Shown one piece after another: positions 26,922 through 32,451 of a stretch of 64,000 bases of DNA (its first letter is position 1; each line of letters opens with the position of its first letter). The stretch comes from Tricharina praecox (lineage: Eukaryota). The translations under genes and the position numbers were made by a program. The stretch covers positions 310,001 to 374,000 of the forward strand of contig NW_026250428.1 in NCBI RefSeq assembly GCF_024521635.1, given 5' to 3'. The notes beneath the pieces are model-generated. The model was not told the DNA's origin. It was given only the letters and a program-made list of their open reading frames with translations, and did no database searches.

Positions 26922-28848
26922 ATTAACTTGACTTCAGATCTTCAGCTAAAAAAGGGCCCCCCTGGTCCCGGCATTTGGGCTGGCCAGACCGAGTGGCAAG
27001 CGCGCTGTCGTCATTGCTCGAGCATTTGTGCGGCTTCGATCAATGTTCCTCAGCGTTCAGTTGGCTTTAATCGTTCAGAGCTTGACGCAAGCACTCCGTA
27101 AGAGTTTGACTCAATAACTACAAGAAAGGCTGAGTTTGTCGGAATAAGCCGCAGGGTAAACATTGTGGATTGTAGGATCTCACATGCGCGGGAAGCGAAG
27201 CACTGTCTGTGGCGCCAACACAGTGGAATTGCTAGCACGTGATAAGTGCGTAACAGTTGATCGAGCCCGCCAATAGTGATCACTCTGTGTCACTCGATCG
27301 TCCATCATTTATTCTCACTCGAATACATCGCATACGGTCCCCTTTGGAATGACGTGACGCCTGACAGGCATAACTATCGTATTCTGGACAAGCTGCATGC
27401 GGAGAGTTCGCCCAGCAAGTGAAATTTAATACACACCTCTTCACAGGTGGTTTGGGGCTGTCAAGGGGTGTAAACAAGCTTATCCGCCGAGTCAAACACG
27501 TATTATCCTTGCGACAGAGTTGAACGGCTGTTCTTCACTTGTAACTTGTAAGCGAGCGGTAAGTGAAGATTAATTTTGCCCTGGTGGGTGGAATGTCAGC
27601 CACGCTCCACAACATCCACCTCGAATCGCACTTTTCGTGATATCATGCGGCGTGACTGACCAATCTCTACCGTCCCTGTCCGAAGACCGACCTGAATCTC
27701 CGGGATCGATCTTAAAGACCTCGGGGTTGGAAACACCCTGCACTAGAATTTGGTGCAGAGCACGGTAGAGGGCAAGGTTTCCATGGTGCGTTGAGCGTTC
27801 TGTACGCACGGCGCGGTAACCTTGACCACTCGGCCAGGATCTCATTTCCAAACACATCCGGTCGTCACCGGTTCCCTTCGCGACGACCATCTACGGCACG
27901 AGAATCAATCGAAAGTCTCGTAGGTACTTGTCGAGTTTTCACGGATGAAACCTGTCCAATATTTAGCCATGCTCTTTTTTAGCTTAGATCATGGATGAAA
28001 CCTCACCAATCGCCGTGCACTCTTTCCTCTCTACCCAACTCTTCTTAAGGTTGAATTTCGTGGGTACGATTAGTCTATCAGCTCGTTTGTTTCCATGATG
28101 CTGCAAACCCTTCGTCGCCATGTGGAGTACCGCTTGAAACTCGCCGGCCTGCAGAGACGTCATGCTTACCGTTGTAGATGGAAGTACTAGTACCATGCAG
28201 GGCTGTCTAATTTTCCGAATGTCTGCGCGGACTTTGCCGTCTAGATAGCGCGAAATGGTGAATTACACATCATCTTGGAGTCAGGGCAAACGATGATGGA
28301 GGTGAGGTAAGGTCCACTGAGACGGCGTGCACACGAAGGTAACGATTGGGCCCAGTTTTCGAGATTCTCACTGGATTTTCGACCCACGTAGCTGCAGCCA
28401 GGTTTCACGCAGTTGCACAGCTGGAGTTTCACAAACACGGAGAAGATGCGGGTCGAATTTAAATTTCCTCTACGCCACGCCATACGGCCTAGCAGTAAAT
28501 GAAAAAAAAGACCAGCAGCCTGTCAGACCTCCATCGTCGCCCACCCTCATTCCCACTGCTCATGCGAGCGGTATACAGAAACTCGGGTCGAGATCATCAC
28601 CCACCCATCCCGAAGGACCGGCAAAACAGGCTTCACTCTAGGGCAACGAGGATATCGATCATCGTCCAGGTTGGAGATTCTGTGGCTCTTGTAAAGAGTT
28701 CAGATGAGACGATTTACTATAGAAATGATCCCTGAGAAAGTGTGTTAGATGTGTTCGACAGATAGATCTCGACCCGGAAGGTGGAAGTAGGGGGTTAACT
28801 CACTATGAAGTAAAATCGCATGAGGTTCGAAGGAAGGAGGGAGGGCCT

Positions 28849-28860: not shown

Positions 28861-29501
28861 TTGGAGTGCGGCTCTGCGTCGGCGAAATTTTTCTTCGCCG
28901 CTAGGGCAGACTGCAGACGATAACCCGGCCGCTGCGGGCACGTGCGGCTGACGACGGCATTTGGCGGCTCAGCTTACCTGATCTACGTTCTTGTCTCGAT
29001 TTCTATTGAACCACAGATTCGAGGCACTCATCGCCAGCTTAACCGAGTCTTGAATTCATGAGATCCGGAAGGCTTCGCTCGATTTCTCCACAAATACCGT
29101 ACTCGGGTACACAGACCATCAACCGATGCGATAATCATTCGTGATCGGAGGTACAAATGTTGTGAACTAGGTATTTATCGTTAGAATTGACGGAGTGGCG
29201 TGCGTTCGTCGGAAACTCAACCGTACTGACGCTTTTGCTATCGTCTGCAGGACGATACCGATAGGCAAGATCGGTGGTCTCGTGAGTTGATAGCTGGAAT
29301 CAGGGAAGCGCGTCCGACGGTTCGCATCTCTACCAAGCTCCCGTTCTTCGGACCCCAGGCACTATCAAGCGAGGCCGGCCCTTCCGCCAGCCCACCACAC
29401 CCCACACACGCCTATACCCCGCGCGCTCTCCAATTCGGCGGCCGCTCTACCTGCCACACGGACCTTCCTTTTTTCCCCCTCTTCCGTCTTACCTCCGCGC
29501 C

Positions 29502-31660
29502 ATGTTGTCGGAGTCTGACGCGAAACGGCTGTTCCAGCTCGCGGCGGGAGTCCGCCCGGCTTCGTGCATAGAAACCGCTAATGGTCGTGGGCTGGCCAGC
29601 GAGGACCGAGTGCGTTCGGAAATAGCAGGCCTCCTGGACGGCTGCCCGAAACGCACAACCACCTTTGCGATTGCGAAAGAACTGTCGGTCGAGGTTCGTG
29701 ACGCGATAAGGCTGCTTCCGCCTGACGTCCAGTTTGGCGGCAAGTGGTGCAGGCTCGGCGAATCGGTGTTGATCGGACCAACCGAGTTCGGCCGCCTGAA
29801 GCGTCTGTTGCAGCAAGAATTGACGCAAGGCATTGTGACGGTGCGCGAGTTCGTCCAGAAGAATGAGATCGACAACGAACTGTTCTTTAAACTTTTGCCG
29901 TCGACGAAGGATGAAAGTTGGACCTGGCTCGATGCGGAGCAGACCAAAGTGTACAGTGAGAGGTACCGGGAGGATCTCAAAGATTCAATCGCTGCCCAAC
30001 TGAATCGTGATCTTAAGAGGTTAGTAGTTATCTCGTCACTGGGCACACTGGACCACGGATCAAAACGAGCTGCTTCGCTGACACTGTTAATCTTCAAGCT
30101 GCATTCAGCTCTCCACATTGAGTACTGCTCCGATCTCCTTCACCAAGGGTGTCATCCGGGATCTTCTGGATACCGGCAGGGCAGATGGCTGCATTGAAGG
30201 GGACAGGTTCATGACTGGGCTTTTCCTCGAACGGCTGCAGACGTCTGCTAGGGACGAGCTGCATTCGGAGGGGGTTGTAGGTGAGTTGAACCAACGAGAA
30301 TACCATCCTCTTGGAACGGTCTTTGGCTGACTACACAACTACCAACAGCCATAAGCACATTGCGGGAAGGACACATAGTTGACCCTCACAAGTGGTTCGA
30401 AGCGTTGGTCCCAGAGGTGCAACTGCTTAGCGACCACTTTGTGAGTCCGTGGATGATTGAAAACATTCGAAACACTATACAGAAGAAGGTCGGGTGGTTG
30501 CAGGTGTCGGAGATCAAGGTTTGTTTCGTGTACCCCCGAGGATGGATTACAGAACACATCACTAATCCGAACCCGCAGGATCCCAAGGGACGGTTGACAG
30601 CTAAAGACACGAATGTTTTGTGGCCAAGGTTGCTGGACTCGCTGCCAGATCTCGTTGCGGCGGAGGGCTTCGTGGTCGCCAAAAGCCTAGATGCCGAACT
30701 GCTGCAGATGAGCCGAGCGGTGGCATTGTTGCAGGCGGAAACGGACTGGCGACGAGAGGTCAAGTCGGACATGATCGGGATCGCGAGAGCGGTAGGTATT
30801 CACACCCCGCAGTTATATTTGTGCTATCAATTTGACCTCAAATTATGACAGCTCTTCCAATATTTCAGCGACAAGGCTTCCCTCCACCCCACATTGCGGT
30901 CCGCGTTCGCAAAGCGGCTTGCCTCTTCCTGTCATGCCGAGTACCAAGCGATGCTCGAGGAGCGACAGAAACTCAATGTGGATGCGGAGATGGCTACATT
31001 CCTTGACAAATTCCTCACGAGGTTCCACATCTACCGCACAGGTGTGGATGGTTTGGAGAAGTCCGTCCTCAAAAAAGAACTCACTCTCCACCTGCTACAG
31101 TGGGCGAGGTTGAACGGCGGCAAGTCGCTGGAAAAGGTTGAAGCAGCCACCAAGGATCCTAGCGAGGACCTACAGATGCTCCGCACCGTACTTCGGAGGA
31201 CGGACATTGCCCGGCCGCAGGATTTACTGGCGGAGATATCGCTTGCCCTCCGGAGGTTGGAACCTGACGGCATGGAAGACATCGTTTCGAGCAGAAGGAA
31301 GGCGATGCTGGTGGGGATCTATGGGGACGTTCAGAGCTTCAAAGTGCCTTCCCTGGCGCTGCTATCGACGCTCACCCTGCTGCACGCGACCAGGTCTACC
31401 GGTATATTGAAAGTGACGGGGTAGGCACCCTCGTTTCCTCGTTTTCACCAGGCGCTAATCCGCATATTCATATACACAGCCAGCATGTCCCCAAGCTCAT
31501 ACATGAAGCCTTCAGTGTGGGGTTGCTGAGCGGCCCTCAGCTCGAAATAATCAAGAGGGCCAAGGTGGCAGTTATCGGGGGAGTCGCGATGACCCCCGAT
31601 GACCGTGAGAAACTCCAGGCGATCGGAAAACAGTGCGTGGGGGCCTTGGGTTTACTCTAA
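29502..31660 (+). CDS. UFL1: UFL1-like protein (E3 UFM1-protein ligase 1 family, tandem winged-helix scaffold), 610 aa, 6 exons
   Basis: Exons are 29502-30019, 30099-30280, 30349-30518, 30579-30791, 30852-31420 and 31480-31660; all introns are GT-AG and the total is 1833 nt with no internal stop. By-eye colinear matches to human UFL1 as I recall it: LSE...ETANGRGLASEDRVRSEI ~ LSE...HTLDGKEYITPAQISKEM; LTQGIVTVREF ~ LQESGQVTISEL; VYSERY ~ IFTEAF; VIRDLLDTGRADG ~ VLEELVNSGRLRG; IYRTGVDGL...ELTLHLLQ ~ LFEKGMKFF...ALTKHLLK; PSLALLSTLTLL...ILKVTGQHVPKLI ~ PALILHLTSVLL...MLHAPGRCVPQII. Confidence 0.8.
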
Positions 31661-32451
31661 GTGAGGGGTCGGTTGAGGGTACGTATGAACCTTCAGAGCG
31701 CCATAGCCGCCCTCCTTTCTTTTCTTTTCTCTCCTCTTCAGCCTTCAGTCAGTGTTCACGGCGTTTTTTCGTCGTGCTGTGTGCAGAATTCGTGTGACTG
31801 CCTTCTCGTGTTGCATCACGAGGATATCACTCGTGGATAACAACGGGTTCTTCTACTTTATTCCGCTGTATTCCTTCACCAGTCCGTCGTGCTTTGATGT
31901 CTTCTCTTAGGAGGAGAGGGGAATGCGATTTTGTCAGGAAGATAGTGACAGAAAAATTCAGGCTGCAGATCTCCTGAAGCGGTTTAGCGAGATGAGCACG
32001 CAATCGAAGGTCGAAATGCTACCATACGCCCTTGTACGTGTGCAATATACTTCCAGGGCCAAAACACCCAAAACACCACGAAAGATGGCGAAATCGGATG
32101 CAGCGCTACCCAGAGGGTCTGCCTCATCTTCCCGATGGCCGAACTCCCCGTTTTGTCGTGCTTACATATCCGTATTGAATGTCATATCTCCCTTTCCCCC
32201 GTGTTGCAAGCCATATCTCCCTTTTCCCCCGCCACCCCACCCACAACCGTCCGAGTCCCACTCATATACCCTCGAACGCCCTCTTGCTTTTATTGCCAGC
32301 CCACTTCGATCTCCTCATACACCATCCCAATCATCTACGTCATCTAGTTTTACGGCATATCATCCAGTACATCTAGACGCCCAGCACAGCGAGATTCAAG
32401 GAGTTGTTCAACACACGCAAACACACTTACCGCAAACAACAACATATCAAC

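Follow-up and report, generated by a model that had tools for sequence, protein, structure and literature searches.

Introduction

The N-terminal helix of human UFL1 (PF09743, PF25041; PDB 8ohd, 8qfc, 9gy4, 8c0d) binds UFC1 through I8, L11, F15 and Q19 and is needed for ligase activity, and the residues that follow it (27–58) form a partial winged helix that is completed by DDRGK1 (PMC10702826, PMC10937380). On the ribosome, W256, F260, Y266 and L275 bind uL1 together with CDK5RAP3, residues 388–476 form the PTC-loop protrusion, the C-terminal bundle occupies the tRNA sites and keeps the 40S subunit from joining, and the acceptor lysine of RPL26 is Lys134 (PMC10937380). An engineered DDRGK1–UFL1 ΔN fusion, containing UFL1 residues 27–200 (PDB 8b9x), folds, and neither binds UFC1 nor has ligase activity (PMC10702826).

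Genes of the UFM1 pathway have been lost throughout fungi (PMC8057497), and after the loss of UFM1 in fungi UFL1 and DDRGK1 were often retained; both proteins have been traced to Asgard archaea, and a UFM1-independent function is considered likely (PMC10183829, section 6). The idea that UFL1 survives for another function after UFM1 loss is already in print. The text of section 6 says nothing on the UFL1 N-terminal helix or the PTC loop, and Tuber, Aspergillus and Ascomycota are not mentioned in the review file of the article; the word "fungi" does not occur in the passages considered of bioRxiv 10.64898/2026.03.30.715226, and a literature search with most subscription papers outside its scope returned no report of helix or loop loss in fungal UFL1. 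The present analysis concerns a UFL1-like gene of Tricharina praecox lying in a window of 64,000 nucleotides, the whole stretch of DNA analysed (GCF_024521635.1, contig NW_026250428.1, positions 310,001 to 374,000).

Organization and transcription of the gene

The features of the locus, numbered from the first nucleotide of the window, are the following.

28518–28745, minus strand: fungal U3 snoRNA (RF01846, 130.7 bits), transcribed away from UFL1
29027–29170, plus strand: 5′-UTR exon from an RNA contig, with three short upstream ORFs inside
29171–29250, plus strand: non-coding 5′-UTR intron, GT..AG joint in runs X1 and X2
29251–29501, plus strand: remaining 5′ leader, AG-free from 29391, with a stop at 29283–29285 and an in-frame near-cognate CTG at 29451
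29502–30019, plus strand: coding exon 1, residues 1–172, partial winged helix followed by WH1 and WH2
30099–30280, plus strand: coding exon 2, winged-helix array
30349–30518, plus strand: coding exon 3, winged-helix array
30579–30791, plus strand: coding exon 4, holding the five-residue link 350–354 (in human UFL1, the PTC-loop protrusion)
30852–31420, plus strand: coding exon 5, C-terminal helical bundle
31480–31660, plus strand: coding exon 6, ending at TAA 31658–31660
31679–31961, plus strand: intron 18 nt past the UFL1 stop, GT..AG joint in X1 and X2

The six coding exons, with GT..AG ends, yield a protein of 610 residues without internal stop that shows no difference from the public record P0021, filed under Tricharina praecox. 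Transcript evidence comes from contigs of four (X1–X4) of the six listed runs, whose "RNA" label is a guess by the tool, the contigs themselves carrying GT..AG joints. All five coding introns, as well as 29171–29250 and 31679–31961, are spliced in contigs of X1 and X2, which belong to two studies; X3 supports the first coding intron, and X3 and X4 contributed short pieces only. Position 29027 is the 5′-most base found in an RNA contig and the true transcription start may lie further upstream, since assembled contigs do not show it; rare isoforms, too, are lost in assembly.

A first-pass annotation of the sequence had placed the start of the protein, reading MLSESDA, at an ATG in good context (cgccATG), and the window sequence bears this out with a start codon at 29502–29504. 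The likeness of MLSESDA to the RLSE that the annotation gave for canonical UFL1 is presumed. The stretch of about 100 nt before the ATG was correctly described as devoid of an acceptor AG: the last AG ends at 29390, leaving 111 AG-free nucleotides, a gap ranking sixth in length among the 4023 of the window, seven of which reach at least 110 nt. The matching gap is shorter in L005 (76 nt) and in L007–L009 (21 nt), which also hold the gene, so that the AG-free gap, unusual in length yet not conserved, is weak evidence by itself. The intron-like signal noticed at 29171–29250 proved to be a real intron by the joints in X1 and X2, yet one that lies in the 5′-UTR and is non-coding; once it is spliced out, the X1 and X2 contigs continue without interruption from 29251 across the ATG as far as 30019.

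No upstream coding exon, the possibility that the annotation had singled out for checking, emerged from these contigs (rare isoforms apart). The spliced leader measures 395 nt and contains three upstream ATGs, all out of frame and with ORFs ending inside the leader (at 29058, 29126 and 29157, with 28, 2 and 2 codons, respectively), which may damp translation of UFL1. The frame of the ATG is closed upstream by the stop at 29283–29285, its 72 open codons containing no Met, and is likewise closed and Met-less in L005 and L007–L009; furthermore, enumeration over the window gave three alternatives that use one intron and stay in frame, all of which remove N-terminal residues and add none. Since the leader ATGs are out of frame, the frame is closed and the alternatives shorten the protein, an upstream exon supplying a helix is absent, save for rare isoforms lost from contigs.

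The leader motif 29439–29480 is conserved with L005 4268–4310, the in-frame CTG 29451 being aligned, across a 3-nt gap, with a TTG; the motif may have a regulatory role or encode a short extension from a non-AUG start. That a rare exon or a non-AUG start restores the UFC1-binding helix through a hidden N-terminal extension could be argued from this conserved CTG/TTG and from the loss of rare isoforms in contigs; it is, however, extremely improbable, given that a start at the CTG would add 17 Pro-rich residues and no helix, that every enumerated alternative shortens the N-terminus and that the RNA displays a single leader joint.

A 30-codon upstream ORF of L007 (4689–4781), which is in the frame of the gene and resembles the helix motif expected in the first-pass annotation, was taken as chance and discarded: it is stopped, has no enumerated one-intron join and is overlapped by a 125-codon frame of the opposite strand.

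Identity of the encoded protein

The 610-residue protein matches PF09743 with E 0.0073 and 16.4 bits, below the cut-off of 23.2 bits. No UFL1 match was returned by Pfam for single exons or for the upstream frame, the single exons yielded only chance matches with phmmer against PDB, and a PF09743 search of the fungus's own genome gave no candidate, though the gene is present. On the other hand, the orthologs P0002, P0006, P0016 and P0012 (E 1e-15 to 2e-7) and all six full-length Morchella-type proteins exceed the PF09743 cut-off, and the full-length relatives that pass come from Wilcoxina, Geopyxis, Rhizina and Morchella. Since orthologs such as that of Tricharina fall below the Pfam cut-off, fungal UFL1 may be under-counted.

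With exon 5 as query, 20 matches were found among 1.84 billion representatives: the protein itself, two unrelated repeat proteins (P0004 and P0009, set aside) and 17 further proteins, one of them (P0012) partial, which leaves 16 relatives, all the named ones Pezizales. The five named genera, Tricharina included, represent four families of this order and keep the full length, with 28–37% identity among genera. Word-based protein searches retrieved no canonical or non-Pezizales UFL1 (no match with exon 1, none with A1 and four with P0016), and a genome search with P0023 indicated that the UFL1 gene is single-copy.

In PDB, human UFL1 was reached with E 3.8e-19 by a profile of five orthologs and with E 6.2e-24 by one of nine (A3), the latter covering both halves of the human protein (25–359 on 47–393 and 476–600 on 614–738); with the C-terminal profile A2, human UFL1 (E 0.012) ranked second, behind a designed protein. 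In the ESM Atlas the protein falls in UFL1 clusters both by features (0.92–0.93) and by structure (TM 0.56). A template-free full-length model (pLDDT 78.7, pTM 0.47) gave, with Foldseek, six best matches that are all UFL1 (top E 2.5e-18), and in VIA its residues 4–605 align on human UFL1 29–785 with Z 17.2 and rmsd 14.3 over 576 residues, the next unrelated chain having Z 8.8; the fold matches that come after UFL1 are RNA- or DNA-binding winged helices such as SelB.

The fungal protein is therefore collinear with human UFL1 from residue 25–26 to residue 785, sharing with it, by predicted model and profile, the partial winged helix, the winged-helix array and the C-terminal bundle at 12–14% identity. 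The resemblance to UFL1 noticed at first sight is in this way substantiated by profile and by fold, and the gene is very probably a true, strongly diverged UFL1 ortholog that is devoid of the segment forming the UFC1-binding helix.

Register of the N-terminus

In structure alignments of the predicted models residue 1 falls on residues 25–26 of human UFL1, just past the UFC1-binding helix, and the sequence profile, which pairs the hairpin glycine G28 with human G53, gives an ungapped offset of 25 that places M1 on residue 26. With 8c0d_A, the chain bound to UFC1, residues 1–140 of the full model align on 25–162. In a second model, which covers residues 1–162 and was made from 14 rows (pLDDT 82.2), residues 1–137 align on 26–162 of the same chain (Z 10.8, rmsd 3.9, 132 aligned), 2–162 on 27–189 of 8qfc_B and 1–154 on 99–254 of the ΔN fusion 8b9x_B (Z 11.4, rmsd 4.3, 151 aligned). 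The construct was thus cut within 1–2 residues of the natural fungal start; unlike the fusion, the fungal protein is natural, full length and has no DDRGK1 half attached. The start column in A3 is the same in seven of nine rows, later in two and earlier in none, these ortholog starts being gene predictions. The suggestion that the protein begins where the E2-binding helix should end is accordingly upheld by structure and profile alike.

The N-terminal elements predicted for the fungal protein, a helix (4–14) and a hairpin (22–33), correspond to a partial winged helix, with the first 20 residues poorly predicted (pLDDT 65 and 52), and among the 12 matches obtained at E up to 10 with an N-terminal-only profile (A4, seven rows) human UFL1 is absent. 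One could imagine that helix 4–14 is itself the E2-binding helix and that the helix of the partial winged helix is the one lost, together with DDRGK1, a Pro-rich linker acting as hinge. Positions 7, 10, 14 and 18 match the spacing of human I8, L11, F15 and Q19, P0016 has I7, L10 and Q18, the linker is Pro-rich and of variable length, the hairpin glycine being reached after 30 to 41 residues, and the sequence profile stops short of the poorly predicted helix. However, two template-free models put this helix on human 26–40 in all five UFL1 chains listed, one of which has the E2-binding helix, the offset of 25 is ungapped, the HMM envelope begins at human 27 and UFC1 was not found in the genome; this assignment of helix 4–14 is therefore very unlikely. 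Helix 4–14 is better placed in the partial winged helix, the segment missing from the fungal protein being human 1–24/25, in other words the helix for UFC1 and the greater part of the hinge.

Losses beyond the helix

The loss of the helix had been described as clean, and this is correct only in part: the helix segment is absent, but the regions of the PTC loop and of the uL1-binding patch have gone as well, a matter of some 100 residues. Between A343 and S528, which pair with human A384 and A683, the nine orthologs have, without exception, 186–204 residues against 300 in the human protein, i.e., 96–114 fewer. The GGN motif of the PTC loop occurs in none of 11 proteins and the predicted model has the five-residue link 350–354 in place of the human protrusion, and we infer that the shortening is located at the PTC loop. 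As read from a profile alignment at about 14% identity, human W256, F260, Y266 and L275 are replaced by S222, E226, V232 and G241, so that the patch for uL1 does not seem conserved. Of the three contacts with the ribosome described in PMC10937380, two thus look lost, and the reduction matching the PTC loop, together with the apparent disappearance of the uL1 patch, is what the present sequences would add to helix loss. The C-terminal bundle is retained, in the alignment of the predicted model, out to human residue 785.

These losses argue against a role on the ribosome and invite a reading in which the ortholog has undergone the same losses and its rod, no longer on the ribosome, is a winged-helix scaffold to which some other partner binds, either nucleic acid or protein. 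This reading would also accommodate the failure to find CDK5RAP3 and DDRGK1 in the genome, the lack of an obvious membrane anchor (19-residue hydropathy at most 1.17) and the nucleic acid-binding nature of the next fold matches. It is nevertheless unlikely, in that the bundle is kept to human 785 and its described role is occupation of the tRNA sites (PMC10937380), and the sharing of a winged-helix fold says nothing on function.

UFM1 pathway genes in the genome

The pathway was searched in the fungus's own genome (38.4 Mb in 104 contigs, of unstated completeness), where profile searches gave no candidates for Ufm1, UFC1, DDRGK or CDK5RAP3, the controls Urm1 (across two exons), the actin family and RPL26 being recovered. 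Genes as conserved as UFM1 and UFC1 should be within reach of a profile search, though none of the control genomes contains UFC1. The absences of diverged genes, that of DDRGK1 in particular, are weak, since the same search also missed UFL1 itself, and a diverged DDRGK1 could be present in the genome.

The ThiF family has 11 matches in eight genes, six of which were assigned to Uba4-type with rhodanese, Uba1, Atg7, TCD1 (E 1.9e-89), SUMO E1 and NEDD8 E1; the two further genes have no glycine-rich motif, and we take them to be non-catalytic partner subunits. None of the eight is UBA5-like. The sole Peptidase_C78 match of the genome carries zinc fingers and is presumably of the ZUP1/Mug105 type, not UFSP2. 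In RPL26, residues 1–79 of the last exon align to human 44–123 and the chain ends eight residues further on (approximately human 131), before the position of the acceptor Lys134. The loss of UFC1 and UFM1 from which the first-pass annotation had reasoned agrees with these searches; the UFM1 pathway appears to have been lost in T. praecox, and its UFL1 would be unable to act as a UFM1 E3.

A side observation concerns actin: among L016–L095, many small contigs in bacterial genome records hold actin 80–93% identical to fungal actin, sometimes in several pieces or copies, and look like eukaryotic contamination of the assemblies.

Selection and neighbourhood

A comparison with L005, a single pair with 445 of 609 residues identical and splice calls of our own, gave dN/dS 0.23 overall, 0.34 in residues 1–35 and 0.14–0.36 across 100-residue blocks; the PAPS reductase exon has 0.08 in the one pair compared, the UFL1 value being about three times higher. 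On this one pair UFL1 is under purifying selection, looser than that on an enzyme, which sustains the view that the winged-helix scaffold was kept.

Splicing of the intron 31679–31961 connects the last exon of UFL1 with the leader of a PAPS reductase gene (MET16-type) that lies downstream, in a region extending to 32452 and beyond, and a single contig spans both genes in X1 (3942 nt) and X2 (4257 nt), with no cover of the intron. This may represent a dicistronic or read-through mRNA or overlapping UTRs, alternatives that contigs cannot tell apart. UFL1, the PAPS reductase gene and an Arb2-domain gene keep their order in L007–L009, and in L005 and L007 a donor-like site can be aligned together with several motifs of the leader; as to the other flank, no Rfam match to U3 snoRNA was obtained upstream of the gene in L005, L007 and L009. 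With 31661–31678 spliced to 31962 onward, no further stop follows the TAA in its frame for 172 codons, probably by chance.

The overlap of the transcript with the PAPS reductase leader might partly preserve a slowly decaying relic of little or no function. The single contig spanning the two genes would suit such a relic, as would the fast divergence among genera, a dN/dS above that of the neighbouring exon and the finding of just 16 relatives, the named ones all Pezizales, among 1.84 billion representatives. An intact frame, dN/dS of 0.14–0.36 in every 100-residue block and full length kept across five genera and four families speak against decay and make it improbable. Since all the named orthologs belong to the Pezizales, helix loss counts as one evolutionary event, and the helix-less start, shared across an order, is the expected outcome of partner loss.

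Discussion

The explanation that we favour, with the balance of probability slightly on its side, is that of a trimmed Pezizales UFL1 with a putative UFM1-independent role on the 60S subunit. A single-copy, expressed UFL1, in a fungus whose UFM1 pathway is apparently lost, would have shed the parts whose partners are gone, namely the UFC1-binding helix and the hydrophobic patch which engages uL1 with CDK5RAP3, would have shed the PTC loop as well, and would have retained the partial winged helix, the winged-helix rod and the C-terminal bundle. The rod would dock on free 60S via WH1/WH2 and the C-terminal bundle (in the human protein, the eL13 contact and the filled tRNA sites), acting as a 60S-binding or anti-association factor that does not depend on UFM1, and the partial winged helix could be completed by a diverged DDRGK1-like partner, of which none was found in the genome. 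The existence of such a partner is argued for by the retention of half a winged helix. The 60S-binding role combined with a DDRGK1-like partner, deduced from the parts retained, is held tentatively, at somewhat less than an even chance.

The closest natural parallels are the UFM1-less eukaryotes of Picchianti et al. 2023 (PMC10183829, section 6), in which UFL1 is likewise kept and the acceptor lysines of RPL26 have diverged; there UFL1 is retained together with DDRGK1, whereas in the present genome DDRGK1 was not found by a search that is weak for it. In archaea, PF09743 matched 48 of 151 Asgard genomes, the 19 strongest matches beginning at model positions 13–43, and that of L100 begins at position 21 (approximately human 27), directly after a DDRGK-like domain. 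Like the fungal protein, these DDRGK/UFL1/PCI winged-helix proteins of about 790 residues have matches that start past the helix, local matches being prone to trimmed ends; they differ in that each is one chain, with a zinc-finger-like region at its N-terminus and a different C-terminus, and the repeats they share with UFL1 do not imply one-to-one orthology. Their match starts agree, weakly, with a helix-less scaffold older than UFM1. It is conceivable, if rather doubtful, that the UFL1 of Pezizales has returned to such a pre-UFM1 scaffold, with neither E2 helix nor PTC loop, which would work tagless with a DDRGK1-like partner on free 60S at the ER, helix and loop being lost after each independent loss of UFM1.

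Why UFL1 survives after the loss of UFM1 is stated as an open question in PMC10183829. The gene described here is a natural version of the engineered ΔN protein, also without the PTC loop, and as such would mark off the parts of UFL1 that serve the tag from those that serve its remaining function, in a single-copy, expressed gene of fungi that can be grown.
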